Of a stretch of DNA of 64,000 nucleotides, positions 24,737-54,717 are shown in pieces (position 1 is the first letter of the stretch; the number at the start of each line of letters is the position of its first letter). The notes under the pieces are model-generated. The model saw nothing but the letters and a program-made list of their open reading frames with translations, made no database searches and had not been told where the DNA came from. Origin of the DNA: Nitrospira sp. GTDB lineage: Bacteria; Nitrospirota; Nitrospiria; Nitrospirales; Nitrospiraceae. Location of the stretch: assembly GCA_005116965.1 (NCBI GenBank), contig SWDG01000006.1, positions 17,553-81,552 of the forward strand, in the 5' to 3' direction. Both the position numbers and the translations under genes were made by a program.

Positions 24737-24759
24737 CAGATGTTCTACAAGGAGTTTCA

Positions 24760-34246: not shown

Positions 34247-34280
34247 CCGGTATGCGACAATCAGTCAGGGGTGGTCACTG

Positions 34281-35232: not shown

Positions 35233-35239
35233 CATCTAG

Positions 35240-36202: not shown

Positions 36203-36229
36203 TATACGGAAGAATGATGCGAGCATGAG

Positions 36230-36868
36230 ATGATGACCTCTCGACTCATACATATAGCCTGTGCGCTGTTAGTGTTGACGGCGGCTGGTTGCCTGTCGCC
36301 CCGTGGGGATTCCGCGGAGATTCACACGTATCAGTTGAGTCTGGATAGATGGTCCAGCGAGACCCGTTCCGGCGAGAGTGATGGCCCGGTGCTGCTTGTG
36401 AGTCAGCCTCAAGCCGAGCCAGGCTTTGAGTCACAGCGCATGGTGTACGTCAAGCGTCTGTACGAGCTAGAGTACTATGCCGTGAATCAATGGGCCGAGA
36501 CACCGGTGCGCATGTTTGCCCCGTTACTAGTCCAGGTGCTCAACCAGAGTGGCGTGTGGCGCGCCGTGATTCCGCTACCGAGCTCGGTTCGAGGGGACTA
36601 TCGCCTCGATTCATATGGATTCGTCCTACAGCAGGAGTTTCTCCAGCAACCCAGTCGTGTGAGGGTCATGCTTCGCGCACAGCTGGTCGACTTACAAGAG
36701 TCGACAATCCTGAGTGCGAGAACGTTTGAGGTCGTGGAGAACGCCACGAGCGAGAATCCCTATGCGGGTGTCCAGGCTGCTAACCGAGCGGTTGCCGGGT
36801 TACTCGATCAAATCGGTTCGTGGCTTCGGCAGTGTATCCAGCATGCGCCTGAGTGCAGCCGCGCATAG
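36230..36868 (+). CDS. ABC-type transport auxiliary lipoprotein (DUF330/PqiC-like)
   Basis: Has the lipobox LTAAGC. It sits immediately after the MCE gene, and its size and position are typical for the family. Confidence 0.65.
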   Translation: MMTSRLIHIACALLVLTAAGCLSPRGDSAEIHTYQLSLDRWSSETRSGESDGPVLLVSQPQAEPGFESQRMVYVKRLYELEYYAVNQWAETPVRMFAPLLVQVLNQSGVWRAVIPLPSSVRGDYRLDSYGFVLQQEFLQQPSRVRVMLRAQLVDLQESTILSARTFEVVENATSENPYAGVQAANRAVAGLLDQIGSWLRQCIQHAPECSRA

Positions 36869-36992
36869 ATATTCGTGAACTGATCTTTATGCATCGATGA
36901 AACGGATTGACGCTCTCTCCTTTGGGCTGCAACTCACCCGGTTTCATTGTTGCAGCAAACGGTTGTCTCGCCAAAAAAAGACAAGCATATTC

Positions 36993-37442
36993 ATGTGGAA
37001 CCCTATCGCATTGGCATCCGTGCTTCTTGCAGCGTTGCTGCTTCATGAATCGACTTGGGGCGCTGGCCTTGCTGCGGGAGGTGGAGCGAATCAGCCGCAT
37101 CGTATCATCATGCATCTCAACGCGAGTGACGAAAAGGTCCAGCGCGGCACCCTCAACAACATCAAACATCTCTATCAGGAACTCGGGCCGCAGAACCTCA
37201 CGGTTGAACTGGTGGTGCATGGGGCAGGCCTTCCACTTCTGACAAAAAAAGGCACAGCATTTGCTGCTGAGTTGGCTGATTTAAAGAAGACGTATGGCAT
37301 CAACTACACGGCCTGTTCCAACACCATGAAGACTATGCAGGTGACGAGGGAGGATTTGATCGGCGAAGTAGATGATACCGTGCCGGCGATGGTCCGGCTC
37401 ATGGAGCGACAGGAACAAGGTTGGGTGTACATAAAGCCGTAA
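36993..37442 (+). CDS. DsrE/DsrF-like family protein (COG1416-like) with signal peptide
   Basis: HRIIMHLNASD...VELVVHGAGL...NYTACSNTMK. The N-terminus MWNPIALASVLLAALLL looks like a signal peptide. The ORF is open from 36897. Confidence 0.55.
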   Translation: MWNPIALASVLLAALLLHESTWGAGLAAGGGANQPHRIIMHLNASDEKVQRGTLNNIKHLYQELGPQNLTVELVVHGAGLPLLTKKGTAFAAELADLKKTYGINYTACSNTMKTMQVTREDLIGEVDDTVPAMVRLMERQEQGWVYIKP

Positions 37443-37482
37443 CCGATGGGTATTGATTCAAAGCTAGAGCCGTGGAGGAAGA

Positions 37483-37917
37483 ATGGAACAAAAGAGTAAA
37501 GTGTATCTGTATCAGACCGCAGTGAAGTGGACGGAACAGCGCAAGGGCGTGATCGCTTGTACGGGGAAGCCTGATGTGCAGGTGGCAACACCGCCGGAGT
37601 TCAAGGGACATGACGGCATCTGGTCTCCCGAGGATCTCTTCGTGGCCTCCGCCAATGTCTGTTTAATGACGACGTTTCTCGCAGTGGCGGAACGAGCCGG
37701 ACTCGCCTTCTCTGCCTATGAGAGCACGGCGGAAGGTCGATTGGAGTTGGTGGAGGGAAAATTTCAATTCACTGCCATCACGATCAGGCCTTCCATCACC
37801 GTGAAGTCTGGAGAGGATGCGGGCAAAGCCAAGGAGCTGATTGAAAAAGCTGAGCGGAATTGTTTGATTTCCAACTCGATGAAAGCCTCAGTGACCTTGG
37901 AGGCGGTCATCTATTAG
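37483..37917 (+). CDS. OsmC/Ohr family peroxiredoxin-like protein
   Basis: 144 aa with SPEDLFVASANVCLMTTF and AERNCLISNS (the two conserved Cys). Confidence 0.8.
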   Translation: MEQKSKVYLYQTAVKWTEQRKGVIACTGKPDVQVATPPEFKGHDGIWSPEDLFVASANVCLMTTFLAVAERAGLAFSAYESTAEGRLELVEGKFQFTAITIRPSITVKSGEDAGKAKELIEKAERNCLISNSMKASVTLEAVIY

Positions 37918-37998: not shown

Positions 37999-38784
37999 TT
38001 ACTGGTGCTCGAGATCGAACTGTGTAACCGAGTCTAAGCTCTTGGCAGCCACCGCTGCCTCCCATCCCGTTTCACAAGAGAGAAGGCGAACCTGCAACGT
38101 ATCCGTGAACTGCGCACCCAATCGTGCCCGAACTTCCGTGCAGACTTCGTCGGCCTCAAGGAAGATTTCGCAGTCGGGCAGTCCCTGAAGACCGATACCT
38201 TGTGCCTTGAGCAGCGCCTCTTTCGCAACCCAGTAGCGGAAGAATCGCACGGCTCGTTGTTCCTCAGGAGCCTCCATGATCGCCGTGTGTTCGGAACGAG
38301 TAAAATAGCGCTTGGATAATTTCGCAACCTCGACTTCTGAACGAACGCATTCAAGATCCACTCCGACTTCCTGCGCCTGTGAGACTGCGATGAGCGCACG
38401 GCCATAGGCGTGAGACAAATTGAACGTGATCGCTGACCGATCTCGTAGTTCCCTCGTCAGGAAGGGCTTGCCTGTTGCACTGCGCTCCAGCGCGACCACA
38501 TCCGGAGTGATTCCAAGGTACTTACTCAGCACGGCTCTCAGACCTCCGTGAGCCAGCACGTAACGCTGCCGGATATCGTCCCGAACAAGGCGCGCCGCTC
38601 GGTGCCGCTCGATTTCATCCAACCAGCTGGTGCATTGTTCCAGGCAGCGCTGCGATCCGTCGAGCTCAATTCCCCACAGGTGAACTGTGTTCGATGGAAG
38701 GCAGATATGATTCCGCCGCCGTGTATCGGCTAGACGCTCAAGTGATTGGAACGAGATCAACATCTTGCAGTTCCAAATGCACAC
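37999..38784 (-). CDS. Sfp-type 4'-phosphopantetheinyl transferase
   Basis: FNLSHAYG, EVGVDLECV and WVAKEALLKAQGIG motifs. It is the last gene of the NRPS operon. Confidence 0.85.
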   Translation of the reverse strand: MCIWNCKMLISFQSLERLADTRRRNHICLPSNTVHLWGIELDGSQRCLEQCTSWLDEIERHRAARLVRDDIRQRYVLAHGGLRAVLSKYLGITPDVVALERSATGKPFLTRELRDRSAITFNLSHAYGRALIAVSQAQEVGVDLECVRSEVEVAKLSKRYFTRSEHTAIMEAPEEQRAVRFFRYWVAKEALLKAQGIGLQGLPDCEIFLEADEVCTEVRARLGAQFTDTLQVRLLSCETGWEAAVAAKSLDSVTQFDLEHQ

Positions 38785-38793
38785 GTCCCGACA

Positions 38794-40455
38794 TCATGTC
38801 GTCATCCTTGCGCTGCTGTCTTTCACATGCTCCACAACCTTCCCGTCATCCAATTTAATGACCTGGTTGCCGAGATGGAAATACCGATCATCGTGAGTAA
38901 TCACGATAACCGTTTTCCCTCGCGCGCGTAGGTCTGGAAGCAATGTCTTGTAAAACACCTCTTTGTACTGCGGATCTTGATCCGCTGCCCATTCATCAAA
39001 CACATAGATCGAGCGATCCTCCAGGTAGGCCGTAATAAGCGCCAACCGCTTGCGTTGCCCTTGAGAGAGATCAAGGGTTGAGAAGGTGCGATCGCGTACA
39101 GTGACTTTGTGATCCAAATGCAGCAATCGCAAGTATTGAGGCGCGAGGCTATGGACCTGAGAATCCGAGTGACCAAGGAGTTTCTTGAAGAGGTAAAAGT
39201 CTGAAAATATGACTGAGAAGTGTTCGCGGTACCACTCTCGATTGGCATCAGTGATCATCGTACCAGCTAGTTTCACGTCTCCTCGTAGCGGCTGATACAA
39301 CCCCGAAAGAACTTTTACAAGTGTGGATTTCCCGCTTCCATTCCCTCCGATGATGAACACCAATTCGCCCGGACATAACTCTAGGCTGATGGGACCCAGC
39401 GTGAAGGGCGTTTCGGCATCATTATCTTGCCCGTAAGAAAACACGACATCGGTCCATTGCACGATGGGAGAGATCCCAGGCTCGAGACCTACTACTTCTC
39501 TCGTCTGGACGTCCTCTGGACAGACATCCAGCGATATGCCCAATCGTTCAATATTTTCCAATGCCACTTGACCTCGTTCGAGAGTTGGTGCCGTACTGAT
39601 GAGACTTGAAATGGGGCCCATCATATAGATCATGGCGACAATGTATCCAGTCAGTGCCTCTGAAGAGATAAGCCCAAAAGATGGAAATAGGAAAATGATG
39701 AAACCGATGAGGGAGTATAGGGAGACCGCATTCCAGGCTCCAAGCAGCGCTTGTATCCGCGTTGCTTCCAGATTCGTCTTTCTATAGAGTTCTGCCGCTC
39801 CTCGCACTTCCTCATCGACAAACTCCTGTCGTCGCGCCCGATGCATCAACAGCTCCTTTAGCCCGTCGGTGAGCGAGCGAAATCGTTGAAACAACTCAGC
39901 TCTGGCATCACGGGATGCGGCAATGATGTCGCGGACACTGGTGTGTAACCACTGATGTACTACGACACTCACGACAGCAACTCCGAGCACTGCGAGAAAT
40001 ACGCTCCACGACAACCAAGCAAGGAAGATTCCGCAGCCCAACACAAGTGCGCCATTCATGAGAAAACTAGGGAAACATTGGATCGCCCAGGTAACCCAAC
40101 TCACGTCATCCGTTAGGGTGACCAGAATATGGTTGGCCCCTCGTTGTTCGGAACGAAGTAACGGAGCCCGCAAGATCTTTGCGCAGAGAGACAAAGAGAG
40201 GTCCAAGATTGTGTCTTGTGAAAAGCGGACGAGCAGAACCTGGGATCCAAGCTGTGCCAGAATCTTGCCGGCGACAAGGCCGACAAACCCTAGCAGTACA
40301 AGAAGGGAATGGTCAGAGGGATGATGAACCACATAATTGATGAGTGCTAAGACTCCGGCGCTCAATAGCCCAGACAGGATGCCGACACAAAGCATGAGCC
40401 AGGCCATGGAGCTCGACCGTTGCACGATAAAGCGGAAAAATCGTCCAAAGGGCAT
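38794..40455 (-). CDS. cyclic-peptide export ABC transporter (fused TMD-NBD, SyrD/YojI-like)
   Basis: 553 aa. An N-terminal six-helix TMD is followed by GGNGSGKSTL, LSQGQRKRLA and VFDEWAADQDP, which is characteristic of this subfamily. Confidence 0.85.
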   Translation of the reverse strand: MPFGRFFRFIVQRSSSMAWLMLCVGILSGLLSAGVLALINYVVHHPSDHSLLVLLGFVGLVAGKILAQLGSQVLLVRFSQDTILDLSLSLCAKILRAPLLRSEQRGANHILVTLTDDVSWVTWAIQCFPSFLMNGALVLGCGIFLAWLSWSVFLAVLGVAVVSVVVHQWLHTSVRDIIAASRDARAELFQRFRSLTDGLKELLMHRARRQEFVDEEVRGAAELYRKTNLEATRIQALLGAWNAVSLYSLIGFIIFLFPSFGLISSEALTGYIVAMIYMMGPISSLISTAPTLERGQVALENIERLGISLDVCPEDVQTREVVGLEPGISPIVQWTDVVFSYGQDNDAETPFTLGPISLELCPGELVFIIGGNGSGKSTLVKVLSGLYQPLRGDVKLAGTMITDANREWYREHFSVIFSDFYLFKKLLGHSDSQVHSLAPQYLRLLHLDHKVTVRDRTFSTLDLSQGQRKRLALITAYLEDRSIYVFDEWAADQDPQYKEVFYKTLLPDLRARGKTVIVITHDDRYFHLGNQVIKLDDGKVVEHVKDSSARMTT

Positions 40456-40503
40456 CGTCGACTAGCCTCACTGTCACCAGGAAAGGAGAGAGGATGTGCA
40501 CAC

Positions 40504-43500
40504 CTAAATTACGTTGGCCAAAGGGACTGGCTTGTTTTGAGTATCCTTGCCAAGGAAAGCCTGCAGATGCTTTATCACTTCTTCCACATGTGGCGTGACA
40601 AGGAGCTGCCCTGAATTGATAGCTGCAACCTGCACGGTCTTGCTCCCTTCGCCCCCAAAGTCTGGCCAGACATGTCTGGTATCCGTTACCGACTGAGCGA
40701 CATACCGCTTTGATGCCACGATATTAAGAATATGCCCAGGGTATTTGCGAACGTCGTAGCGAGCCACAGCCTGGAGCGTGGCTCGGGTCACTCGTTCGAC
40801 TTGGAATTCGACAAATAGCTCATCGTTAGCGGCATTGGTTTGCGATAACGACATGAGTCTCTTGTATTTACGTTGGAGAAATGAAACCCAGTCTTTGATC
40901 GGCAAACAAACGAGCCTGGGAATAGTACGCAGTATCCTCCACAGCATAAACAGGGGCAGCCCAAACGTCATCGGCAACCTATAACGATGTGGGCGATATG
41001 TGGTTGGATGCCATGTGTCACTCATCACAAGTGTGACGGCCTGCCCCTGACCGACAAGTTGCTGAGCCATTTCATACGCGATCAGTCCGCCGGTACAACT
41101 ACCAAGGACGATATACGGCCCGTTCGGGCGAAAGCGACGGATCTGTGCAACATAATGACTCGCCATCTCCGGCACCGATGTAAACGGCGTCTCTTTTCCG
41201 TCCAGTCCTCGCGCCTGTAACCCGTAGGAGGGTTGATTCGGCCCCAGCAGCTTTGCCAGCTGAGCAAAGACCAAGACATTACCCCCAACTCCGGGTACCA
41301 TGAAAATCGGTGTCGCGTTCCCGCTCGGCTGAATGGCGACAAGGGATTGCCATGGCGGTGTCCACTGCTCATGTGAAAGTTTCGACGCGAACTCGGCAAT
41401 GGTTGGTGCTTGAAACAGTGTTGAAAGCGGAAGATGTCGCCCATAGACTTGTTCAATGAGAAAGAAGAGCTGGGCGGCTTTGAGTGAGTGGCCGCCGAGA
41501 TCAAAGAAGTTGTCGTGAATCCCGACCTTGTCGATTTCGAAAACCTGTTGCCACAAGGCCGCCATCTGTATATCCATTCGATCGTGCGGGGCAACATGAA
41601 CCGCATCATTAGAGACCGAGGAGACGGGAGAGGGTAAGGCGTTCCGGTCGATCTTGTTATTGGCCGTCAAGGGCAGGGTTTTCAGAAAGACGAAGAGGGA
41701 GGGGACCATGTAGTCCGGAATCTCGGACCGAAGAAATAAGCGAAGGTCCTGCTGGCTTGGCGCAGAGCCCTCTTGGCAGACCAGATACGCCACCAACTGC
41801 TTTGCACCGTGCGGGTCCTCCCGCGCGAGGACTGCTGCCTGACGGATCGCTTGATGACGGCTCAGCGCGGTCTCGATCTCACCCAATTCGATCCGATACC
41901 CTCTGATCTTAACCTGGTGATCCAATCGACCGAGATGCACGATGCGTCCATCTGGGCGATACCGTGCTAAGTCTCCCGTTCGATAGAGTCTTGCGAGGGG
42001 CTCCGGAGAAAATGGATGAGGGATGAACCGCTCCGCTGTTAAGTCAGGCTGTCCCCGATAGCCTCGGGCTAACCCATGGCCGCCGATATAGAGCTCACCG
42101 GCAACCCCGACTGGAGCCGGCTGCAGGAATTGATCCAAGATGTACACGTCTGTATTGGCGATTGGTCTCCCAATGGTGATCTCCCGATCAGTCCGTTCGA
42201 TTCGTTCGACCGTAGACCAAATCGTGGTTTCAGTCGGACCATACATGTTCCACAAGGCGACGCAACGTTCCAGCAGTGACGCCGCAAGATCCGGAGGAAG
42301 GGCCTCCCCTCCACAGAGTACCGTCAGGCTGCTACTACCGCGCCATCCCGCCTCAACCAGCATGCGCCATGTGGCAGGGGTCGCTTGCATGATCGTCGGC
42401 TGAACGGTTTCACAGAGATCACGTAATGGTCGTCCATCCATCGCGACCGCTCGACTGGCGATCTCGACACGGGCTCCAGCCAGCAACGGCACATACAATT
42501 CCAAGCCGAAAATATCAAAGGAGATTGTCGTCACCGAGAGCATGACATCGTGAGCGGTACATCCCGGCTCTTGCCGTATCGAACTCACGAAGTTCACAAG
42601 GGCGCGGTGCGGAATTTCCACGCCCTTGGGCTGTCCTGTGGAACCAGACGTATACAGAATATACGCCAGGTCTTGCGGTGTGGCGATCGGGCCTAGATTG
42701 TGGTCTGCTTCCTGCGCGATGCGGCTCTCCTCGCGGTCCAGACACAGCAGACGGCAGACCTGCGCATCAAATCGATCGGCGAGGGAGGCGAATGTGAGCA
42801 CAATGGCGAGGGAGGCGTTCTCGGCCATATACCGGAGTCGATCCCGTGGAAACTCAGGGTCGAGAGGGACATAGGCCGCACCGGTTTTCAGCACGGCCAG
42901 CAACGCAATGACCATCTCCAAGGATCGATCGAGACTAATACCCACCGTGACACCAGGCTTGGCGCCCAGGGTTCGCAGGTAGCCTGCCAGCTGATTGGCC
43001 CGGACATTCAGCTCACCGTACCGCAGTGCCTTCGGTCCCATCGACAACGCAACGGCATCGGGCGTCCGCTTGACCTGCGCTTCAAACAACTGAGGAAAAC
43101 ATTCAGACTGTGGATACTCTCGTTGCGTGCGGTTCCAATCCTGCAGCATCTGTTGCTGCTCGGGCGCCGTCAGTGTTGGGAGCTCGGACAGTTTACGCTG
43201 AGGATTGGCCAATGCGCTCTGGAGTAGGAGCTTATACTGTCCGAGCATCCGCTCAGCAGTCTGAGGCTCGAAGAGATTGGTGTTGAACGTCAAATACGCT
43301 CTCCGGGAGAACTCTGTCTCGATCGTCAAACTTAAGTCGAATTGTGCGGCTTGCGTCTCCACCTCGAACGGCACCCAACTCAACCCTTGGACGTTGATCT
43401 CCCCTATTGGAGCATTCGGGACATTGAAGAGGACCTGCACCAGGGGGGCAGAGCTTTGGTCACGAGAGGAGTGCATCATCTCAACTAATTTGTCGAACGG

Positions 43501-46500
43501 GAAGTCCTGATTGGCATAGGCCTCTAACGCCGTGTCACGCACCCGTGTTATCAACTCGATGAACGTCGGATCGCCGGAGAGATCGGTACGGAGCACGAGT
43601 GTATTGACAAACGAGCCGATGATCGACTCGACCGCAGATTGAGTTCGGTTGGCGATGGGAGAGCCGATAGCCACATCAGTTTGGCCGGAATAGCGCCGCA
43701 AGAGAATCTGGAAGCCCGCCAACAGGGACATGAACACCGTCGCATTATGTTCCGCGCTGAATTGTTTCAGGCGGTCAATCAATGAGGTGGGCAATTCCAC
43801 CATGCGATGTGAGCCGTTAAACGTTTGTACGACGGGCCGTGGATAATCGGTCGGCAACGAAAGCTTTGACAGCCCGGCCAGCTTCTTTTGCCAATAGTCC
43901 GATTGTGTGCTCAGCCAGTCGTCGGTCAGACAACGTCGTTGCCACACGGCATAGTCGGCATACTGAAGAGGGATCGGTTTTGCCGACGGAATGTCTCCTC
44001 GGCAAAACGCGTTGTAGAAGAAGGCAAACTCATGGCCGATGACTCCGAATGACCACTGGTCTCCGATGATATGGTGCATCGTGAGCACCAACACATGGTC
44101 CTCAGGCTCGACTTCGATCAAGAGGAATCGTGCCAGCGGGCCTTGCTCAAGATCGAACCGCTGGTTTGCTTCCTGCTCCACAAGCTGGGCCGCTTGCTGT
44201 TGTCGTTCCTCGCGAGGCCGCTGGGTAAGATCAACTTCGACCCAATGGGGAGGGCGAAAGGGGTGGATCGTTTGGACTGGTCCCTCACCCTTCATCATAA
44301 ACGTCGTTCGAAAAGCCTCATGGCGGTGACAGATGGCATCGACCGTGCTCCGGAGAGCTGATTTGTTGAGCCGTCCCATTTGCCGTGACGCAAACGACAT
44401 GTTATACGCCGTGCTCTCAGGGGCCAGCTGATACATCAGCCACATACGTTGCTGAGAATAGGACAAGGGGAGTGGCTGATCTCTCGGCACCGGAGTGATC
44501 GGTGGCATCACGGAAGCCTGCTGGTCCTTCTGGCGCAACCGCGCCACTTCTTCGGCCAATGCCGCAATCGTTGGTCGCTCAAACAGGGCCGGGAGTGAAA
44601 CATCAACCTCAAAGAGCTCGCGTATCCGAGAGACGAGCTGAGTTGCCAAGAGCGAATGACCTCCCTGCTCAAAAAAATGGTCGTGGACACCGGCCTCTGG
44701 GACTTGAAGCACGGATTTCCACAGCTCAGCCAGGGACTCTTCGACCTGATTTCTCGGAGCCACCCTGGGAGCCACTTGACCTGTTGTGGTGTTCGGAGCG
44801 GGAAGAGCATGTCGATTCACTTTTCCTGTGGCACTGAGCGGCATCGTGTCAAGCCACAGAATCATGGATGGCACCATGTAGTGTGGCAGTCGAGCTGTGA
44901 GAAAACGCCGAACCTCTTCAAGCCTTTCGTTCAGCGACGACTCGCCGGTGACATAGCCGACCAACCGGTACTGGTCCCGTTTATCCTGCCGAAGCAGCAC
45001 CGCCACGTGATGCACACCCGGAAAGTTACTCAGCACATACTCAATCTCTCCGAGTTCGATCCGATAGCCACGCAGCTTCACTTGTTGATCCACCCGACCC
45101 AAAAACTCCACATTGCCATCGGCGCGATACCGAGCCAGGTCACCGGTCCGATACAATCTGGTGCCGGGCGCGTAGGGATTCGCAAGAAACCGCTCTTGGG
45201 TCAATTGCGGCTGGTTGACATAGCCGCGGGCCAGACACTCTCCCGCGATATAAAGTTCTCCCGGCACGCCGATCGGCATCAGTTGCAGACTTGCATCCAG
45301 CACATACAGTTGCATGTGGGCAATGGGTTTGCCGATTGGAACGCGGGCTGCAGCTTCGTCCCGAGTCGTGTGATATACGCTACACCAGACCGTGGCTTCC
45401 GTCGGTCCATATTCGTTGTACAGCGTGGCATGGGGCAGGAGTTCGTAATGTCGTCGCACGAGTTCAAGGGGCAGGCTTTCTCCGGCCGTAATGCTGATAC
45501 GAAGCGATTCCAGCTGAGCACTTAACGCCTCGCCCAGCACGGCGTGGTACAAAGAAGGAACCCACACGATGTGTGAGATGCGATGGTGCTCGATGAGCGA
45601 CGCAAGCTCCGTTGGGTCGCGATGGGCGGTCTCCGGTGGAATGACCAGTTCCCCCCCCTGCAGCAACGTCCAAAATATACCTGTCACAGACCCATCAAAG
45701 GCCAGAGAGAAGGTCAGTAGGAATCGGGATACCGGGTCCGGATAGTACTGCAGTCTGGCATGTAGAGAGGTCACCAGGCTGCGGTGTGTCACGGCCACAC
45801 CCTTGGGTCTTCCTGTCGAACCCGAGGTGTAGATGATATAGGCGAGCTGATCCGGGGAGACCGAAAGCGCGAGGTTCCCCTCCTCCGCTCCGCTTCCTGT
45901 GGGTGCAGAGAGGGTTTCTACATCACAGATCTGGCCGCCATAGCTCTGTATATGGTGACGGAGATGCGCCTGTGTAACGACGATGGAAACGTGCGAGTCC
46001 TCCAGCATGAGCTGGAGACGATGATCAGGGAAGGACGGATCCAGGGGAACATACCCGCCTCCTGCTTTGAGAATACCTACGAGGCCCACGAGGGCATCTA
46101 CCGAGCGCTCGACACAGAGCCCCACCGGGAGATCCGCACCGACCCCCAATTTCTGTAGGGCGCGAGCAACTCGATTCGCTCGTCGGTTCAGCTCTTGGTA
46201 GCTGATGGACTGGTCTCCGCACGTGACGGCGAGTGCCAGGGGAGTCCGTTCCACCTGTGCCTCAATGAGTGTATGGATACTAGAGGCCTGGGCGGACGGT
46301 TCGTCCCACGTCAACTGAATGTTCTGTCGCTCCTCGGCGGTGAGGAATGACAGTTGATCAAGGCGGGCCTCAGGTTTCTTGAGAAATTCCTCAAGCAAGA
46401 TCTCCAGCTGTCCCAGCATTCGGTCCACCGTCGAATCGTCAAAAATCGTCGAGTCATGGAGAAACGCCAGTTCCAGGCCATGCGCCGTATTCACGACCAT

Positions 46501-49500
46501 TAACACGAGGTCGAACTCTGATGCAGTCGGCTCCCAAGGGAGATGCGTGACCTCAAGATTCCTGACGGTGAACGTGGACAAGGGGTCGTCCTCACACACG
46601 ATCATCACATTGAAGAGTGGAGACAGGGATCGCTCACGTTGTAACGACAGTGCCTCGATTACCTCCTCAAATGGGAGTTCTTGGTGGTCATAGGCCTGCA
46701 CCACTATACGGCGTATCTGTTTCAACAACTCGTGTCCTGTCAGCCCATCCGACACCTCAGATCGCAACGCCACCGTATTGACGCAATACCCCATCACGTC
46801 TTCGAGCTCTCTCCGACGCCTGCCGGCCACGATCGATCCAATGACGATATCCGACTCGTGTGTGTAACGATGGAGCCACGTCGCAAAGACGGCGTACAGC
46901 ACCATGAACGTCGTGAGGCTCTGGCGTTGGCAGAAATGATCGAGACGGGTTGAAAGCTCTGGAGGGAGCGATCGGGACCGCACGCCTCCCTCGAACGTGC
47001 GCACCCTCGGCCGCTGACGATCGACCGGTAGTTCAGCGGGTGGTCGGGCACCGCTCAATTGCCCGATCCAGTAGGCTTGATGGACTTCACGAAGGCCTTG
47101 ATCCAGCCTGGTTCTCTGCCAATCGGCATAGTCCGCATACTGAACGGTCAGCGTGGGCAGTAGAGCCTTGTGAACATCACCACCGGCTTCCCACAGAAGG
47201 GCCAGCTCCTTCCAGAAGATACGGAGAGACCACCCGTCAGCGACGAGGCGGTGGAATGTCACGGTCAGGACATGCACGTCTTGCTCAAGCGCCAGCAGAG
47301 TCAGCCTCCATAGCGGTCCCTGTCGTAAGTCGAATGGCCGGTTCCTCTCCGTTCGTAGGAATTGCTGCACCTGAATGTCTTGCGCCGCAGGGGCTAATCC
47401 TTGGAAATCTTGCCGTCCTATCGTGACAATCGCCTCAGAAGACACTCCCGCGAATCCTTCCCCTCGCTCCGATCCGAAACGCGTTCGAAGAATCTCGTGG
47501 CGACGGGCGATTTCCCGTACCGACCGCTCCAATACCTCAGGGTTGACCGGTCCACGGATGCGTACGCTCATGGAAATATGATTGATCGCGCTCCCAGGAT
47601 GCACTTGCTCTAAGAACCAGAGTCGCTGCTGAGATGGGCTGAGAGGAATTCTGCCTTCCCTTCTGGATGTCGAGCGAAGCGGAATGCGCGGAATCCCAGC
47701 CCTGCCGCCTTCTGCGTCATCTGGACTCGTACTCAGTTCATCGATCCGAGTGGCCAGTGCGAACAAGGTCGGACATTCGAACAGCACGCTGAGGGGGAGT
47801 TCGACGTGGAAGACGTCGAGGATACGCGCCACAACCTGTGCGGCAAGGAGCGAATTGCCGCCGAGTGAGAAGAAGTTCGCGTGACGGTGCGGAAGGGGTC
47901 CTCCAAGCACCTCGTGCCAGATATCGGCCAGCCCTGTTTCGAGAGCGGTTTGCGGACTCTCATTCGAGACTCCGTCGGTTTCAACATTCTGATCGGAATC
48001 CAACGTGTTTTCTCTGACGACGGCAAGCTGGCCAGCCTCAAAGGCGGCCTTGCAGGCGCCTCGTTGAATTTTTCCGCTCGAGGTTCGTGGGATTGTGCCG
48101 GACTTGATCAGTACCACGGTGTGGAGTTCGAGTTCATACTCATCCGCCAGCGCACGACGGATGCAGTTCACCACGTCCATCAAATCGGATTCGGACACCT
48201 GCTTCTCGATCTCATGGACCAGCGCCACACGTTCTCCGGTCTTGTCCTCAATCGAGAAGGCCGCTCCATATCCTCGTCGCAAGCCGGGGTGCGCGTGCTG
48301 GGCCGACCACTCCAGATCGTGGGGATAATAGTTCCGCCCACGCACGATGATCAGATCCTTGAGGCGTCCGGTCAGGAACAGCTCTCCGCTGTGGATAAAT
48401 CCCAGATCGCCGGTCCGTAAATAGGGACCCTCACCTGACCCAGTAAGAGCGGCGTTAAATGTGGCATCCGTTTCTTCTGGTTTGCCCCAGTATCCAGCGC
48501 CGATCCCGGTTCCGGCCAGCCACACCTCTCCTACGAAGCCTGATGGGCATTCAGCGTGAGTCACAGGATTCACAATCCGTACATGCGTTTCTTCAAGAGG
48601 TTCTCCGCATCCGACCAATGTTCGGGTTCCCTGTTCCGAGGCGGGAGCCTCTTTGATGATCGAGTCGGCCAACGCCTCAGCCTCAACACGCAAGAAGCTC
48701 GGCTCCGCATCGGCCCGCTTCACTGTCACCAAGAGCGTGGCTTCTGCAAGTCCATACGCCGGGGCAAACGTCGTTCGCCGGAATCCCCGTGGACCAAAGG
48801 TGTCGATAAACTGCTCCACTGTCTCCGGACGGATGGGTTCGGCGCCGCAACTGGCGACCAGCCACGTGCTCAAGTCAGCCTGCCATCCTGGCTGTTGCCG
48901 CACAGCCCTGAGACACGCCTCATAGGAAAAATTCGGTCCCCCGCTGTGGGTAATCTCAAATCGAGACACCGCATCGAGCCAGCGTAATGGCCGCCGGAGG
49001 AACGTGACGGGTGACATCAGATAGGCAGGAATGCCGGCGTAGAACGGGGCGAGGATTCCGTGCAGTAATCCATAGTCATGAAAATACGGCAACCAGCAGA
49101 GCGACCGGCTGCGGTCCGATACGTCTCCGGCCAGACTCAAGGCCCTGCAGTGAGCGAGTACATTTCCCTGGCTGATCATGACACCGCGAGGCGTGGCCGT
49201 CGATCCAGAGGTGTATTGCAGGTAGGCGAGGGCGTTGTCGTGTGGCTGTGGCCACTCAATCGAGTCGCTTGACTCGTAGGGTTGATCGGTCGTCACCCAC
49301 GTGATCGGACCCGTCTCATTGGCGAGTGAAAGTTCCGAAGACAACGCCGTGCTACGTGAAGTCGTGAGGACCAGCGAGACCCGGGCATCCTCGATAATAC
49401 TGCGCAGTCTGGGCAGCGCATGTTTCCGCCTGATGGGGTCGGGAGCCGGAGCAGGAACTGGGACAAGCCCGGCACAGACACAGGCCCAAAACGCGCATGC

Positions 49501-49896
49501 GACATCGAGTCCCTGAGGGTAGAGCAGAAGGGCTCTGGTTCCCGGTCGAGCCACGTGTGTGAGATGGCCGGCGAGCGAACGTACGGTCCCTTCGAGTTGC
49601 GCATAGGTCAGCTGATGCTCAATCTCGAGGTTGTCACGAAGCAGCGCATAGGCCAGAGCCGCTGGCTGGTGGCGGCATCGATGCTCGAAGAGATCAGGGA
49701 GGTTGTGGATCGCCCGAGGTGGAAGTTTAGACATGGATGCGAGACACAGGCTGCCCTTGAATCGCTCAGAATAGCCGCGATCACCTATCTGTCTAGCGAC
49801 GAGTACAACCGTAGAATGGTTGATGATAAATGAAAAGAATTTCTCGTTTTTCAACCGGTCCAGAAATTGACCACCGTGTAGTGTGGCAGTCCTCAT
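40504..49896 (-). CDS. non-ribosomal peptide synthetase, FAAL-ACP-C-A-T-C-A-T-TE
   Basis: 3130-aa ORF. FAAL region: LLLYPQGLDVACAFWAC..., YLQYTSGSTATPRG. Carrier Ser residues: Ser682 (FFSLGGNS, codon 47851-47853), Ser1748 (FFEQGGHS, 44653-44655), Ser2804 (FFDLGGHS, 41485-41487). C motifs: FHRLVADGW (aa 881-889) and MHHIIGDQW (aa 1940-1948). A cores: LAYIIYTSGSTGRPKG and LAYILYTSGSTGQPKG. TE: LGSCTGG (Cys2934). The likely true start is ATG 49734 (MSKLPPRAIHNLPDLFEH...). Confidence 0.95.
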   Translation of the reverse strand: MRTATLHGGQFLDRLKNEKFFSFIINHSTVVLVARQIGDRGYSERFKGSLCLASMSKLPPRAIHNLPDLFEHRCRHQPAALAYALLRDNLEIEHQLTYAQLEGTVRSLAGHLTHVARPGTRALLLYPQGLDVACAFWACVCAGLVPVPAPAPDPIRRKHALPRLRSIIEDARVSLVLTTSRSTALSSELSLANETGPITWVTTDQPYESSDSIEWPQPHDNALAYLQYTSGSTATPRGVMISQGNVLAHCRALSLAGDVSDRSRSLCWLPYFHDYGLLHGILAPFYAGIPAYLMSPVTFLRRPLRWLDAVSRFEITHSGGPNFSYEACLRAVRQQPGWQADLSTWLVASCGAEPIRPETVEQFIDTFGPRGFRRTTFAPAYGLAEATLLVTVKRADAEPSFLRVEAEALADSIIKEAPASEQGTRTLVGCGEPLEETHVRIVNPVTHAECPSGFVGEVWLAGTGIGAGYWGKPEETDATFNAALTGSGEGPYLRTGDLGFIHSGELFLTGRLKDLIIVRGRNYYPHDLEWSAQHAHPGLRRGYGAAFSIEDKTGERVALVHEIEKQVSESDLMDVVNCIRRALADEYELELHTVVLIKSGTIPRTSSGKIQRGACKAAFEAGQLAVVRENTLDSDQNVETDGVSNESPQTALETGLADIWHEVLGGPLPHRHANFFSLGGNSLLAAQVVARILDVFHVELPLSVLFECPTLFALATRIDELSTSPDDAEGGRAGIPRIPLRSTSRREGRIPLSPSQQRLWFLEQVHPGSAINHISMSVRIRGPVNPEVLERSVREIARRHEILRTRFGSERGEGFAGVSSEAIVTIGRQDFQGLAPAAQDIQVQQFLRTERNRPFDLRQGPLWRLTLLALEQDVHVLTVTFHRLVADGWSLRIFWKELALLWEAGGDVHKALLPTLTVQYADYADWQRTRLDQGLREVHQAYWIGQLSGARPPAELPVDRQRPRVRTFEGGVRSRSLPPELSTRLDHFCQRQSLTTFMVLYAVFATWLHRYTHESDIVIGSIVAGRRRRELEDVMGYCVNTVALRSEVSDGLTGHELLKQIRRIVVQAYDHQELPFEEVIEALSLQRERSLSPLFNVMIVCEDDPLSTFTVRNLEVTHLPWEPTASEFDLVLMVVNTAHGLELAFLHDSTIFDDSTVDRMLGQLEILLEEFLKKPEARLDQLSFLTAEERQNIQLTWDEPSAQASSIHTLIEAQVERTPLALAVTCGDQSISYQELNRRANRVARALQKLGVGADLPVGLCVERSVDALVGLVGILKAGGGYVPLDPSFPDHRLQLMLEDSHVSIVVTQAHLRHHIQSYGGQICDVETLSAPTGSGAEEGNLALSVSPDQLAYIIYTSGSTGRPKGVAVTHRSLVTSLHARLQYYPDPVSRFLLTFSLAFDGSVTGIFWTLLQGGELVIPPETAHRDPTELASLIEHHRISHIVWVPSLYHAVLGEALSAQLESLRISITAGESLPLELVRRHYELLPHATLYNEYGPTEATVWCSVYHTTRDEAAARVPIGKPIAHMQLYVLDASLQLMPIGVPGELYIAGECLARGYVNQPQLTQERFLANPYAPGTRLYRTGDLARYRADGNVEFLGRVDQQVKLRGYRIELGEIEYVLSNFPGVHHVAVLLRQDKRDQYRLVGYVTGESSLNERLEEVRRFLTARLPHYMVPSMILWLDTMPLSATGKVNRHALPAPNTTTGQVAPRVAPRNQVEESLAELWKSVLQVPEAGVHDHFFEQGGHSLLATQLVSRIRELFEVDVSLPALFERPTIAALAEEVARLRQKDQQASVMPPITPVPRDQPLPLSYSQQRMWLMYQLAPESTAYNMSFASRQMGRLNKSALRSTVDAICHRHEAFRTTFMMKGEGPVQTIHPFRPPHWVEVDLTQRPREERQQQAAQLVEQEANQRFDLEQGPLARFLLIEVEPEDHVLVLTMHHIIGDQWSFGVIGHEFAFFYNAFCRGDIPSAKPIPLQYADYAVWQRRCLTDDWLSTQSDYWQKKLAGLSKLSLPTDYPRPVVQTFNGSHRMVELPTSLIDRLKQFSAEHNATVFMSLLAGFQILLRRYSGQTDVAIGSPIANRTQSAVESIIGSFVNTLVLRTDLSGDPTFIELITRVRDTALEAYANQDFPFDKLVEMMHSSRDQSSAPLVQVLFNVPNAPIGEINVQGLSWVPFEVETQAAQFDLSLTIETEFSRRAYLTFNTNLFEPQTAERMLGQYKLLLQSALANPQRKLSELPTLTAPEQQQMLQDWNRTQREYPQSECFPQLFEAQVKRTPDAVALSMGPKALRYGELNVRANQLAGYLRTLGAKPGVTVGISLDRSLEMVIALLAVLKTGAAYVPLDPEFPRDRLRYMAENASLAIVLTFASLADRFDAQVCRLLCLDREESRIAQEADHNLGPIATPQDLAYILYTSGSTGQPKGVEIPHRALVNFVSSIRQEPGCTAHDVMLSVTTISFDIFGLELYVPLLAGARVEIASRAVAMDGRPLRDLCETVQPTIMQATPATWRMLVEAGWRGSSSLTVLCGGEALPPDLAASLLERCVALWNMYGPTETTIWSTVERIERTDREITIGRPIANTDVYILDQFLQPAPVGVAGELYIGGHGLARGYRGQPDLTAERFIPHPFSPEPLARLYRTGDLARYRPDGRIVHLGRLDHQVKIRGYRIELGEIETALSRHQAIRQAAVLAREDPHGAKQLVAYLVCQEGSAPSQQDLRLFLRSEIPDYMVPSLFVFLKTLPLTANNKIDRNALPSPVSSVSNDAVHVAPHDRMDIQMAALWQQVFEIDKVGIHDNFFDLGGHSLKAAQLFFLIEQVYGRHLPLSTLFQAPTIAEFASKLSHEQWTPPWQSLVAIQPSGNATPIFMVPGVGGNVLVFAQLAKLLGPNQPSYGLQARGLDGKETPFTSVPEMASHYVAQIRRFRPNGPYIVLGSCTGGLIAYEMAQQLVGQGQAVTLVMSDTWHPTTYRPHRYRLPMTFGLPLFMLWRILRTIPRLVCLPIKDWVSFLQRKYKRLMSLSQTNAANDELFVEFQVERVTRATLQAVARYDVRKYPGHILNIVASKRYVAQSVTDTRHVWPDFGGEGSKTVQVAAINSGQLLVTPHVEEVIKHLQAFLGKDTQNKPVPLANVI

Positions 49897-50096
49897 GTCT
49901 GAATGAAGAACGCTGTTTGCAAACTGACGTGCAGGTCATGCTCCGCAGTGAAGGCTGTGGCATCTTGCGACAGTAGGCGAGGAGGCACCGGGGTATTTGT
50001 CACCAGCTCAATCCCTTATTTCCCGCACCATCCTAGCAAAACAATATAACTAATTGAATAATAATGAGAAAGCTCTCTAGATTCGTTGAGAGGCAA

Positions 50097-50112
50097 TGGC
50101 ACATTGATCGCA
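50097..50112 (+). promoter_or_regulatory. candidate sigma-54 (-24/-12) promoter ahead of the cytochrome island
   Basis: TGGCAC-ATTGA-TCGCA has the GG and GC invariants at canonical spacing, with one mismatch in the -12 box. It lies ~27 nt upstream of ATG 50139. Confidence 0.4.
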
Positions 50113-50138
50113 AGGTTTGGTCCTCGAAGGGAGCACAC

Positions 50139-50528
50139 ATGCAGACTACTGGACGACTGGTGGCGTGTTGCGCAGTGTTAGCCGGTATGTCGGGGTTGGG
50201 CTTCAGCAATCTTGGGGTGAAGGAGTTTGCTGTCACGGCCAAGGGTGGTGATCCAGTTAGTGGACGCGAAATCTACGTGAACACCTGCATCCGCTGCCAC
50301 GGAATCGACGGGAAAGGCGCACTAGGAATCAAACTTGTTCCACCTCCGGCGGATCTGACCTCGCTCACTATTCAAAGTCGGCTCGATGGGACCTTATTTC
50401 GACGGATTCACGAAGGCAAACCGAATACCGCCATGGGTGCGTGGAAACATGCGCTCTCCGATGAAGAAATTTGGGATGTCTTGGCCTATGTGCGCACATT
50501 CAGGGTCGAGTCGGGTGGGCAACCATAA
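50139..50528 (+). CDS. class I c-type cytochrome (monohaem)
   Basis: Has a signal-like N-terminus MQTTGRLVACCAVLAGMSG, a CIRCHG haem site and a distal NTAMGAW Met. The ORF is open from 50064. Confidence 0.8.
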   Translation: MQTTGRLVACCAVLAGMSGLGFSNLGVKEFAVTAKGGDPVSGREIYVNTCIRCHGIDGKGALGIKLVPPPADLTSLTIQSRLDGTLFRRIHEGKPNTAMGAWKHALSDEEIWDVLAYVRTFRVESGGQP

Positions 50529-50614
50529 AGTTGAATCCAATAGGTGGGAGTTGTCTCATACGAGTGTGTCAGGAAAATACAATCAACTCCATTTTTCGAT
50601 GAGGAGGTAATGTC

Positions 50615-50833
50615 ATGACGTGCAATGTTGGAGGGATTGAGAGACCTATACGAATTGGAGCAGGGCTCGTGGCAATCATCATCGGGCTTTTTGCAGGGCT
50701 CTCGACTACGATGTCGGGGGCTGCTCTTGCTGTTGGGGTCATCCTCCTGTTCACCGGGGCAATGGGATTTTGCCCGTTGTTTACCTTACTTGGGATTAAT
50801 ACCTGCACTCCGGCATCCGGTGTGAAGAAATGA
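50615..50833 (+). CDS. DUF2892 (YgaP-like) small membrane protein
   Basis: 72 aa with NVGGIERPIRIGAGL...LFTGAMGFCPLFTLLGINTC, the family pattern. The SD is GAGGAGG. Confidence 0.75.
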   Translation: MTCNVGGIERPIRIGAGLVAIIIGLFAGLSTTMSGAALAVGVILLFTGAMGFCPLFTLLGINTCTPASGVKK

Positions 50834-50843
50834 GGCCCACTCT

Positions 50844-51698
50844 ATGAGCCGACCGGTCATTGCAAGCGTTGTGTTGGTGAGTACGCTGGTGTGGACGATC
50901 GGTTGTGTCCCACCTCCACGGGTGATGGAGAACGAGGAGGCGGCTGTTCGTCGGAGCACGGGGTCGCCGGTCGATGCGCTGTTTGTCCCGCCATCGCCTG
51001 AAACAATTCCAGGTGATTTGAGGGGCGAGCAGATTCGCCTGGGCTACAAGATGATTGTCGACACACAGGAATATGGGAAACGGTATGTGGGAAACGCACT
51101 CAACTGCACCAATTGTCATTTAGATGCGGGACTCAACCCGAATTCCGCATCCTTCGTCGGTATCGCCACGCTCTACCCACAGTATCGTCAACGGGCCGGC
51201 CGACAGATGACGCTGGCCGATCGAATCAACGAGTGTTTCGAACGCAGTATGAACGGAAAACCTCTGCCGCCCGACAGCGTGAAGCTCACGGCCATTGTCG
51301 CATACGTCACATGGTTATCACAGAATATGCCGCCCGGCGTTGAGGTCCCATGGCGAGGCATCCCACGCCTGACCTCGACCCATCAGCCGGACCCTCTCAA
51401 CGGCAAAAAGGTCTTTGAGAAAAAGTGTGTCTTCTGCCACGGCTCCGACGGGCAAGGCACCATGGCGGCACCGCCTGTGTGGGGGCCTCGTTCATACAAC
51501 ATCGGTGCAGGCATGGCGCGAATCAGCGTGGCCGCTGGATTTATCAAGGCCAACATGCCACGAGGCTGGGGCTGGACGGTGACGGATGACGAAGCCATCG
51601 ATGCGGCAGTCTATATCAACACACAGCCTCGACCGGACTTTCCCGACAAAATTCACGATTGGCCGAAGGGGGGCAAGCCGGCGGATGTGCCGTATTGA
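50844..51698 (+). CDS. TsdA-like dihaem c-type cytochrome (thiosulfate dehydrogenase family)
   Basis: Two CxxCH sites (CTNCH, CVFCH). IRLGYKMIVDT...RYVGNALNCTNCHLDAG, then ADRINECFERSMNGKPLP with a Cys at the position of the TsdA haem-1 Cys ligand, then IGAGMARISVAAGFIKANMP. The N-terminus has a possible lipobox (VWTIGC). Confidence 0.7.
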   Translation: MSRPVIASVVLVSTLVWTIGCVPPPRVMENEEAAVRRSTGSPVDALFVPPSPETIPGDLRGEQIRLGYKMIVDTQEYGKRYVGNALNCTNCHLDAGLNPNSASFVGIATLYPQYRQRAGRQMTLADRINECFERSMNGKPLPPDSVKLTAIVAYVTWLSQNMPPGVEVPWRGIPRLTSTHQPDPLNGKKVFEKKCVFCHGSDGQGTMAAPPVWGPRSYNIGAGMARISVAAGFIKANMPRGWGWTVTDDEAIDAAVYINTQPRPDFPDKIHDWPKGGKPADVPY

Positions 51699-51754
51699 GG
51701 CAACACCTATCATTCGTGGGAAGTATGGCGATCGCATCAGGAAACGATTGAGGC

Positions 51755-52315
51755 GTGATGACCAACGAGCCATGGAAGCTAAATGATACGGGGTATGCGG
51801 TGCCGGTAATGCCCTGGTGGGCCGGGGGTCTCGGAATCGGGATTGTTCTGCTCATCGCCGTGGCACTCGTGCAACCGATCGGAGTCTCGACGCAGTATGT
51901 GGTGTTAGACGGTGTGCTGTTGCATGCGCTGAGTCCAGACCTTGCCGATGACAGCCCGTATCTAAAGGAAGCCAGCAAGGGATGGACCTTGGCCACCTAC
52001 GAATTCTTCTTCGTCGTTGGGATCCCCATCGGTGCGTTTCTGGCTGCAGCAATCACGAAACGATTCAGTACCCGAGTGGTGCCTCCGCTGTGGGCCTATC
52101 GATTTGGACAGGCGCCAGGAAAACGTCTGGCGTGGTCGTTTATCGGGGGTTTTCTTCTGCTGTTCGGAGCTCGCTTTGGAGGGGGATGCACGTCCGGCCA
52201 TATGATTAGCGGGGTCTCGCAGCTGGCCGTGAGTTCATTCATTTTTTCCGCCGCGTTGTTTGCCAGTGCAATTGTTACGGCCCGCTGGCTGTACCCTGAG
52301 CAGGTGAAACAGTGA
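51755..52315 (+). CDS. YeeE/YedE family (sulfur-transport, PF04143-like) membrane protein
   Basis: Polytopic, with FGGGCTSGHMISG. Its stop overlaps the next start (GTGA). Confidence 0.8.
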   Translation: MMTNEPWKLNDTGYAVPVMPWWAGGLGIGIVLLIAVALVQPIGVSTQYVVLDGVLLHALSPDLADDSPYLKEASKGWTLATYEFFFVVGIPIGAFLAAAITKRFSTRVVPPLWAYRFGQAPGKRLAWSFIGGFLLLFGARFGGGCTSGHMISGVSQLAVSSFIFSAALFASAIVTARWLYPEQVKQ

Positions 52316-53252: not shown

Positions 53253-53263
53253 AAGGAGCAGCG

Positions 53264-54673: not shown

Positions 54674-54717
54674 GAGTGAGGAGGGTGCATGTGTACATAT
54701 CAACAAGGAGGCAGATT

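Follow-up and report, generated by a model that had tools for sequence, protein, structure and literature searches.

A fatty-acid-primed nonribosomal peptide synthetase operon of Nitrospira with a cysteine thioesterase and a predicted acyl-X-glycine product

What does a compact nonribosomal peptide synthetase (NRPS) operon make in a nitrifying bacterium, and how does its product leave the enzyme? The question is raised by a 64,000-nucleotide stretch of DNA from Nitrospira sp. (assembly GCA_005116965.1, contig SWDG01000006.1, positions 17,553 to 81,552; hereafter the window), in which an NRPS gene is followed by genes for an ABC exporter and a 4'-phosphopantetheinyl transferase (PPTase). In soils, drinking-water filters and wastewater plants, nitrite is oxidised mainly by Nitrospira, a group that also has complete ammonia oxidisers among its members. 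To our knowledge, almost nothing has been learned about their specialised metabolites. The three-gene operon is real, intact and uncharacterised and, as far as sequence can tell, the identification of its domains is far beyond chance. It probably assembles a small fatty-acyl-X-Gly lipopeptide, with X predicted to be Trp, His or Tyr.

Organisation of the operon and its enzymes

Coordinates are those of the window, and residues are numbered along the 3130-aa open reading frame (ORF) of the NRPS (M1 is the ATG at 49896; Table 1). The order of its domains is FAAL-T-C-A-T-C-A-T-TE, that is, a fatty acyl-AMP ligase (FAAL) and a carrier (T), two modules of condensation (C), adenylation (A) and carrier domains, and a thioesterase (TE). 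A preliminary description made from the letters alone had proposed this order as one that domain models could refute; the models were run and upheld it, with Pfam applied to the whole protein and to six overlapping pieces and NCBIfam to the whole. The Pfam tally is three AMP-binding, three PP-binding, two Condensation and one Thioesterase match, with E-values of 1e-13 to 1e-238. The three carrier serines picked out earlier (Ser682, Ser1748 and Ser2804) are present and conserved, and PF00550 is matched three times.

The best matches of the FAAL domain in the Protein Data Bank (PDB) are all fatty acyl-AMP ligases (7R7E-G at 450 bits, 3KXW and FadD32/23/28, down to 226 bits), compared with about 87 bits for acyl-CoA synthetases. 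NCBIfam FAAL models score 504-524 bits, which is under cutoffs that were set for stand-alone proteins. Adenylation domains are indicated by two pairs of PF00501 and PF13193 matches, by TIGR01733 (1061 bits, cutoff 317) and by the A10 Lys (K517) in both specificity codes.

These codes were obtained by motif-anchored extraction, for which a GrsA-PheA reference yields DAWTIAAICK at the ten Stachelhaus positions, and the ten-residue strings reported earlier for A1 and A2 were reproduced. The A2 string, DILQLGMIWK, is identical in 39/39 complete orthologue codes. The same string has been published verbatim as a Gly-activating signature (PMC12283262), which bears out the proposal that module 2 carries a glycine code. 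The A1 string, DGTVIAEVWK, had been thought to match no known code, and here the earlier view does not hold. It agrees at seven of ten positions with codes for His (DSALIAEVWK and DSPLIAEVWK) and for Tyr (DGTITAEVAK and DGTLTAEVAK, of fengycin/plipastatin), and at six of ten with the Trp code DAAIIGEVWK (tables of PMC12283262). Position 278 is ambiguous by one residue, being V by motif anchoring and W under MAFFT. Across loci, the A1 code reads DGTV[I/V]AEVWK in 38 of 41; the three divergent loci have DG[I/L]AIGEVWK, a form that shares seven of ten positions with the Trp code. Since A1 and its nearest His, Tyr and Trp codes have Glu322 in common, X is predicted to be a residue whose aromatic or heteroaromatic side chain can give a hydrogen bond to Glu322, namely Trp, His or Tyr. 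The nearest solved A domains in the PDB did not discriminate the A1 substrate. The L-form of X is expected because the NRPS has no epimerisation (E) domain.

A thioesterase had been recognised at the end of the NRPS. It is not a standard serine enzyme: its nucleophile is a Cys, which had been missed, in the motif GSCTGG (G-S-C2934-T-G-G), and this Cys is invariant in 29/29 and in 40/40 orthologues. An AlphaFold2 model of the domain built from 50 orthologues (pLDDT 81.5, pTM 0.79) has the alpha/beta-hydrolase fold of thioesterases, with C2934 located at the nucleophile elbow. Foldseek searches with the model returned TE domains only. The top one was AB3403 of Acinetobacter baumannii (query-normalised TM-score 0.68), closely followed by the epimerising/cyclising 7CRN, GbnD6, the oocydin branching TE, EntF, FASN, NocB, Pks13 and Vlm2. 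The nucleophile helix is followed by a strand, and the residue behind that strand is termed position I; here it is D2960, which is aligned with the Asp found there in AB3403 and 7CRN. An invariant Asp3072-Thr-Arg lies after the next-to-last strand (model 212-217), 31 residues before His3103, and in the model Asp3072 is a putative counterpart of topological position II as used by RifR, ObiF and SulM. His3103 (window 40588-40590, minus strand) is more than 90% conserved and is presumed to be catalytic. The lid spans about 80 residues and four helices, with many basic and hydrophobic side chains.

The exporter matches TIGR01194, 'cyclic peptide export ABC transporter', at 449.6 bits (cutoff 286.2) over residues 14-545 of 553, in agreement with the SyrD/YojI type suggested at the outset, and it falls under the YojI equivalog cutoff (394 vs 604). 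The family presumably includes the pyoverdine exporter PvdE. Likewise, the PPTase has the two-domain architecture of the Sfp type to which it had been assigned (PF22624, 35.3 over a cutoff of 27; PF01648, 62.4 over 25) and is under the HetI equivalog cutoff (164 vs 370 bits).

An ORF check found the three co-directional minus-strand frames where they had been placed (40504-49896, 38794-40455 and 37999-38784). The 3130-aa length of the NRPS, by contrast, was an over-extension. About 85 clusters of NRPS orthologues have lengths of 3066-3098 aa, a query coverage of 98% and the N-terminus MSKLPP, which corresponds to M55 here (49734) and gives a protein of 3076 aa. As neither candidate ATG is preceded by a clear Shine-Dalgarno sequence, the start was set from these orthologues, and the first 54 codons of the ORF (window 49735-49896) are probably untranslated. 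The 48-nt gap between the NRPS and exporter genes stands; the 9-nt gap reported between exporter and PPTase applies only with a GTG start for the latter. On an identical metagenome contig the PPTase gene was called as 254 aa, with a start seven codons later and a 30-nt gap. The whole operon covers only 12 kb. Promoter and terminator scans of 37.4-50.2 kb gave counts no better than shuffles, and Rfam and tRNA scans of the window gave no RNA gene associated with the operon.

Table 1. Positions of the operon, its domains and selected flanking genes in the window
Feature	Position	Strand	Length or residues	Evidence and remarks
NRPS gene	40504..49734	-	3076 aa from M55	ORF reaches 49896; ORF call, Pfam/NCBIfam, orthologue lengths and N-termini
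FAAL	48019..49689	-	aa 70-626 (70-470 and C-terminal subdomain 514-626)	PF00501 and PF23024
Carrier T0 (acyl carrier protein, ACP)	47743..47931	-	aa 656-718	Ser682 at 47851-47853; PF00550; GGNS motif in 29/29 orthologues
C1	46318..47658	-	aa 747-1193	F-H882-R883-LVADG, HR at 47248-47253; PF00668 4e-97
A1	44821..46263	-	aa 1212-1692	Code DGT(V/W)IAEVWK; PF00501/PF13193
Carrier T1	44548..44736	-	aa 1721-1783	Ser1748; PF00550
C2	43144..44472	-	aa 1809-2251	HHIIGDQWS, invariant in 29/29; PF00668 1e-106
A2	41653..43086	-	aa 2271-2748	Code DILQLGMIWK (Gly)
Carrier T2	41383..41562	-	aa 2779-2838	Ser2804; PF00550; begins the exchangeable 3' cassette
TE	40537..41310	-	aa 2863-~3120	Cys2934 at 41095-41097; PF00975
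ABC exporter, fused permease-ATPase	38794..40455	-	553 aa	SyrD/PvdE/YojI family; TIGR01194, PF00664 and PF00005
Sfp/HetI-like 4'-phosphopantetheinyl transferase	37999..38763	-	254 aa from ATG 38763	ORF to GTG 38784 (261 aa); PF22624 and PF01648
tRNA-Lys(UUU)	14340-14415	+		Sole RNA gene in the window by Rfam and ARAGORN
Chlorite dismutase	24697-25461	+
Glycogen-phosphorylase-like fragment ORF	25463-26395	+		Before acetate kinase
Acetate kinase	26400-27626	+		Directly upstream of phosphoketolase
Phosphoketolase	27639-30044	+
MlaE/F/D and auxiliary lipoprotein lipid-transport, DsrE-like and OsmC genes	33125-37917	+		Shared with a 4.4-Mb Nitrospira genome
Cytochrome c (154 aa) and SoxA/TsdA-like dihaem cytochrome	50064-52839	+		Shared with a 4.4-Mb Nitrospira genome

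Conservation of the locus and two operon forms

In a distribution scan with one genome per GTDB species, the full-length NRPS of the operon was found in at least about 57 Nitrospira/Nitrospiraceae species representatives at 69-95% identity. The closest orthologues are in MFD04651.bin.1.135 (95%) and Nitrospira sp. CG24B (93%), and a RefSeq record, 'Nitrospira sp. BLG_1', is among the carriers. Matches outside the Nitrospira clade reach 36-43% and all lie within larger NRPSs. The reading of the host as a nitrifier is upheld by the named orthologues, all of which are Nitrospira, Nitrospiraceae or Nitrospirota, and by a window that holds chlorite dismutase and many cytochromes c. Its description as an orphan cluster also stands, given that no product from Nitrospira was found in the literature, that proteins from other lineages stay at or below 43% and that the NCBIfam equivalogs of characterised NRPSs all score under cutoff; membership of the AusA, SolG, MxcG, EntF and PvdL equivalogs was rejected on their curated cutoffs. 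One 76% orthologue (L029, CAADGK010000104.1) is labelled 'uncultured Nitrosospira sp. isolate CMX'; given its gene content, it is probably a comammox Nitrospira under the wrong label.

In the one other genome examined for synteny, of 4.4 Mb (L003), the NRPS sits between the same neighbours, with the lipid-transport genes on one side and the cytochrome genes on the other. The GC content of the operon (0.53-0.58) matches that of the window (0.52-0.62). Because the neighbours are shared and the GC content agrees, these sequence comparisons point to a vertically inherited, lineage-wide Nitrospira locus that is not peculiar to the window. A horizontally acquired island was rejected on the same two grounds and because the flanks contain no mobile-element genes, and a pseudogene or decaying cluster was rejected in view of intact full-length orthologues in more than 50 species. 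No tailoring genes stand alongside the operon in any locus examined. The operon is intact in so many species, and in the second genome occupies the same neighbourhood, that a role in core physiology is likelier than that of a sporadic antibiotic cluster. Its possible roles include aggregation, surface behaviour, signalling and envelope function.

The operon occurs in two forms. Approximately 27 of 44 loci have the order NRPS-ABC-PPTase and about 17 of 44 have NRPS-PPTase, and wherever enough downstream sequence is available the PPTase gene comes after the NRPS or the ABC gene. Position I of the TE is Asp or Glu in 24/24 loci with the exporter and Asn in 16/16 loci that lack it. In neighbour-joining trees of the TE segment, the two groups are each monophyletic with no intruders, while in trees of the FAAL, T0-C1, A1-T1, C2 and A2-T2 segments they are thoroughly mixed. 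The ratio of between-group to within-group identity drops from 0.99 to about 0.8 at aa ~2740, in the A2-T2 linker. From this co-variation, the decoupled phylogeny and the identity break, T2-TE(Asp/Glu) with the ABC gene and T2-TE(Asn) without it appear to behave as alternative, exchangeable 3' cassettes.

Several mosaics were seen among these proteins. For instance, P0081 (L024, from Nitrospira sp. RSF6) is divergent over its first ~500 aa, the FAAL, and a typical orthologue in the remainder. P0166 carries a Nitrospira-type T2-TE (87%/69%; 89% to some loci) on a distant line, whose upstream domains have 45% (FAAL), 34% (C1) and 39% (A1) identity and a module-1 code of DTEDIGTVAK. The metagenome-assembled genome Nitrospira sp. 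RBC044 holds both an exporter-minus and an exporter-plus NRPS (L010 and L055), 61-84% identical upstream, which are either paralogues in one genome or the result of a mixed bin.

The proposed product and its rivals

The order of the chemical steps follows the colinearity rule, and we infer it together with the identity of X, the acyl chain, the mode of release and the biological role. The PPTase would convert T0, T1 and T2 to their holo forms, and the FAAL would adenylate a free fatty acid and load it onto T0. C1 would then N-acylate the amino acid X (L-Trp, L-His or L-Tyr) that A1 had placed on T1, and C2 would join acyl-X to the glycine placed on T2 by A2. The resulting acyl-X-Gly would move to Cys2934 of the TE by transthioesterification before release. 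By default, release would be by hydrolysis to the free acid; given the conserved Cys, the chain might instead be cyclised or handed to another nucleophile. In operons that have the ABC gene, such as that of the window, the SyrD-type pump would export the product. By analogy with the A. baumannii system discussed below, this product may be a surface-active or signalling lipid.

Several points weigh against this assignment. The lipopeptide is purely a prediction, and the A1 code does not settle the choice among Trp, His and Tyr. The second His of the C1 motif is replaced in most orthologues, and the exporter is missing from about 40% of orthologous loci, so that the ABC gene is not an obligatory part of the operon. 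The acid of the TE triad is ambiguous in the model, with position I being Asp, Glu or Asn across orthologues and D3072 invariant, and four orthologues (P0032, P0084, P0085 and L037) have Tyr or Ser in place of His3103, the presumed catalytic residue. Finally, the compound linked to the A. baumannii system, acinetin 505 (Ac-505), has non-standard linkages for which hydrolysis alone would not account. A second His, seven residues past His3103, is present in the window, in those four orthologues and in both TE consensus sequences.

The rival that survives best, possible although clearly less probable than hydrolysis to an acyl-X-Gly acid, keeps the same assembly line and changes its last step. 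Here, the Cys-TE would release the chain by cyclisation onto one of the chain's own hydroxyls or nitrogens, or by transfer to a specific acceptor (an amine, a thiol, a lipid or a sugar hydroxyl). Instead of a linear acid, a conjugate, a cyclic depsipeptide or a reactive species would result; as a corollary, the two T2-TE cassettes would give differing release or export outcomes. The nucleophile speaks for this alternative, since Cys-TEs of known chemistry (ObiF and SulM) close rings rather than hydrolyse, and the C1146S change in ObiF shifts the enzyme to hydrolysis. The Cys is invariant in the 40 orthologues and recurs among more distant relatives. A HMMER search with the TE against 1.84 billion representatives gave 404 matches at E ≤ 1e-30, and within the best 150 of these the nucleophile is Cys in 106. 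A full-length match to the TE was obtained for 110 of them; there, a Cys nucleophile occurs in 89, an acidic position I (Asp or Glu) in 96 and a D-x-R motif at position II in about 72. Further points in its favour are the invariant Asp-Thr-Arg at the candidate position II, like that of ObiF, SulM and RifR, the perfect co-variation of TE subtype with exporter (24/24 and 16/16), the thioether-linked Cys-Gly and non-standard linkages of Ac-505, and the presence of transfer or branching TEs (Pks13 and the oocydin TE) among the structural neighbours. However, the chain ends in Gly, and since this residue has no beta-substituent, the ring closures of ObiF and SulM, to a beta-lactone or a beta-lactam, are impossible. 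In addition, the operon has no acceptor-forming or hydroxylating gene, and the position I residue is Asp here, as in hydrolytic or cyclising TEs of the EntF/AB3403 type.

A broader version of this idea is doubtful. Under it, the C(HHxxxDQ)-A(Gly)-T-TE(Cys) module of Nitrospira, AB3403 and hundreds of metagenomic NRPSs would perform an undescribed release chemistry, either passing a glycyl thioester to a cellular acceptor or giving rise to a reactive species, of which the Cys-Gly thioether in acinetin 505 is a hint. The Nitrospira product would then be a lineage-wide surface-active or signalling lipid that controls microcolony and biofilm behaviour, with the two cassettes giving secreted (ABC) and cell-retained versions.

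A further reading, improbable in our judgement, is that a His-to-Arg change has inactivated C1. The fatty acyl chain would then stay unattached to residue 1, leaving either a free X-Gly dipeptide as the product or another purpose for the FAAL-T0 pair. The second His of HHxxxDG is usually regarded as important for condensation. Both C-domain motifs had been reported as visible; that of C2 (HHxxxDQ) is, whereas C1 reads HRxxxDG, with Arg in place of the second His in 24/29 and in 33/38 Nitrospira orthologous loci. The HRxxxDD X-domains of glycopeptide NRPSs offer a parallel. Since all distant homologues, and those orthologues that diverge most, keep HH, the HR state is derived and arose within Nitrospira. 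Nevertheless, the other core motifs of C1 are intact (SxxQxRLWFL, RHExLRTxF, YADYADW and CVNTVALR) and its mean pairwise identity across orthologues, 0.73-0.76, is about equal to that of the FAAL (0.75), which argues that the domain is not decaying. FAAL-T0-C1 is intact and constrained in all orthologues, HH and HR lineages share the same architecture and A codes, and some C domains, such as VibH, tolerate the loss of the second His. C1 was also considered as a classical starter (Cs) lipoinitiation domain, which was rejected because by bit score it is nearer to elongation-type C domains (Txo1/2, 246-248 bits) than to the C domain of PvdL (130 bits) or to 8F7F/8F7H (101 bits), a surfactin synthetase C domain that we take to be of the starter type.

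Least probable of all, and very unlikely, is that the operon makes a metallophore, such as a membrane-anchored ligand of Cu, Fe or Zn that serves nitrification enzymes and binds through the His/Tyr/Trp side chain and the carboxylate. In its favour, A1 may activate His (seven of ten positions), the host in which the locus is conserved is a chemolithoautotroph with a high demand for metals, the exporter family presumably includes PvdE and the best NCBIfam match is a PvdL-type model. Against it, neither genes for chelating groups (hydroxamate, catechol or thiazoline) nor genes for a TonB-dependent receptor or for uptake lie in the operon or its flanks, one side chain would make for weak denticity, and the PvdL model scores far under its cutoff (2333 vs 4090).

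Flanking genes and comparison with known systems

Chlorite dismutase, which we take to be typical of Nitrospira, fits the taxonomic assignment of the window. On the cytochrome side of the operon there are two YeeE-type sulfur-transport genes, and the L003 genome has a sulfite-oxidase-like Mo enzyme, also on that side. A 307-aa ORF at 22271-23194 (plus strand), at a distance of 15 kb from the NRPS and outside the conserved operon, is weakly matched by PF23169, 'Halogenase D' (E 1e-12). Two long ORFs overlap on opposite strands, at 53225-54706 (minus) and 53249-54673 (plus). Because the plus-strand ORF encodes a multi-haem cytochrome c by Pfam, the antisense frame on the minus strand is probably spurious.

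In terms of layout, the N-terminal part of the NRPS resembles PvdL (NF004282/PRK05691), the top NCBIfam match (aa 68-2434). Both have an acyl-adenylating domain-T-C-A-T-C-A arrangement, and in both the acyl chain is supplied by a fused carrier rather than as an acyl-CoA. They differ in that the match reaches 2333 bits against a cutoff of 4090, the A codes are other ones, and the Nitrospira enzyme has two modules and a TE and lacks a pyoverdine context. In PvdL, an E domain and a third module reportedly follow, with no TE.

The comparison with ObiF1 and SulM concerns the thioesterase. In all of them the nucleophile stands in a GxCxG motif, and some 30 residues ahead of the catalytic His there is a conserved Asp, the candidate position II. 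In contrast, their substrates end in a beta-hydroxy or beta-amino residue and that of Nitrospira in Gly, position I is Gly in them and Asp, Glu or Asn in Nitrospira, and the Gln-Cys-Asn motif and MbtH domain are lacking in Nitrospira. ObiF1 is also a weaker match as a module (439 bits) and is absent among the sequence matches to the Nitrospira TE. Of the three features that define ring-forming TEs of the ObiF/SulM type, the Nitrospira enzyme has the Cys, lacks a terminal residue with a beta-nucleophile and, having no Gly at position I, probably departs from the third, a catalytic Asp relocated to position II.

Closer relatives are found in a family of metagenomic NRPSs. The recurring unit among the TE relatives is C(HHxxxDQWS)-A(Gly, DILQLG[LMV][IV]WK)-T-TE(GxCxGG). 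Proteins of ~1340 aa consist of this unit alone, as does AB3403; in others it is preceded by FAAL-T (~2040 aa) or by FAAL-T-C-A(X)-T with varied X codes (~3035-3119 aa), and it also occurs in three-module enzymes (~4145 aa). Members such as P0166-P0226, P0111 and P0101 have the same kind of termination unit as Nitrospira, with a Gly code and a Cys-TE with D-x-R, and several are FAAL-primed with one, two or three modules. They differ in their module-1 codes (for example, DTEDIGTVAK, DALMIGAVAK, DAFVLGFEDK and DAG[VM]IGEVWK) and in a C1 that keeps HH. This C(HHxxxDQ)-A(Gly)-T-TE(Cys) family is large and mostly uncharacterised, and AB3403 is its only solved member.

AB3403 is also the best match to the complete termination module among solved structures, at 700 bits vs 528 for SrfA-C, 439 for ObiF1 and 405 for EntF. 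It is the A1S_0115 protein of the quorum-sensing-regulated A. baumannii operon A1S_0112-0119, which contains a FAAL, an acyl-CoA dehydrogenase, an ACP, the NRPS, a pump and a PPTase and is needed for motility and pellicle formation (PMC5376624). Acinetin 505, a compound of 505 Da that resembles a lipopeptide and contains Gly and a Cys-Gly in thioether linkage, has been connected with the same operon (PMC5376624); its structure was interpreted from mass spectrometry alone. Referred to as 'uncharacterized', AB3403 was the only other structurally characterised protein compared with SulM and ObiF to have a nucleophilic Cys, and it has Asp at position I (PMC11298585).

Common to the Nitrospira operon and this system are a FAAL with an acyl carrier, a final C-A(Gly)-T-TE module in which the TE has a Cys nucleophile and an Asp at position I, an efflux pump and an Sfp-type PPTase. 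The Gly code is present, C2934 aligns with the Cys of GWCFGG and D2960 with the Asp of MIDTRAP, in a sequence alignment that covers the N-terminal half of the TE only; the exporter-less orthologues depart from AB3403 at position I, where they have Asn. Unlike in A. baumannii, the NRPS itself includes the FAAL and ACP and has one more C-A(X)-T module, the operon and its flanks lack an acyl-CoA dehydrogenase and a homologue of A1S_0117/0118, and the pump is of the ABC rather than the RND type.

Three features set the locus apart from a routine orphan cluster: its conservation across the Nitrospira clade and its syntenic position, an invariant Cys-TE on a predicted glycyl terminus, and an exchangeable T2-TE cassette with or without the ABC gene. 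The simple predicted masses and the 12-kb operon make it a tractable target, and solving it would clarify how Cys-type thioesterases act on glycyl thioesters. In summary, the NRPS cluster is uncharacterised but architecturally ordinary, a FAAL-primed lipopeptide NRPS with an AB3403-type termination module. As this module is common to Nitrospira and to an A. baumannii motility and biofilm system under quorum-sensing control whose own product is poorly defined, solving the one would inform the other.

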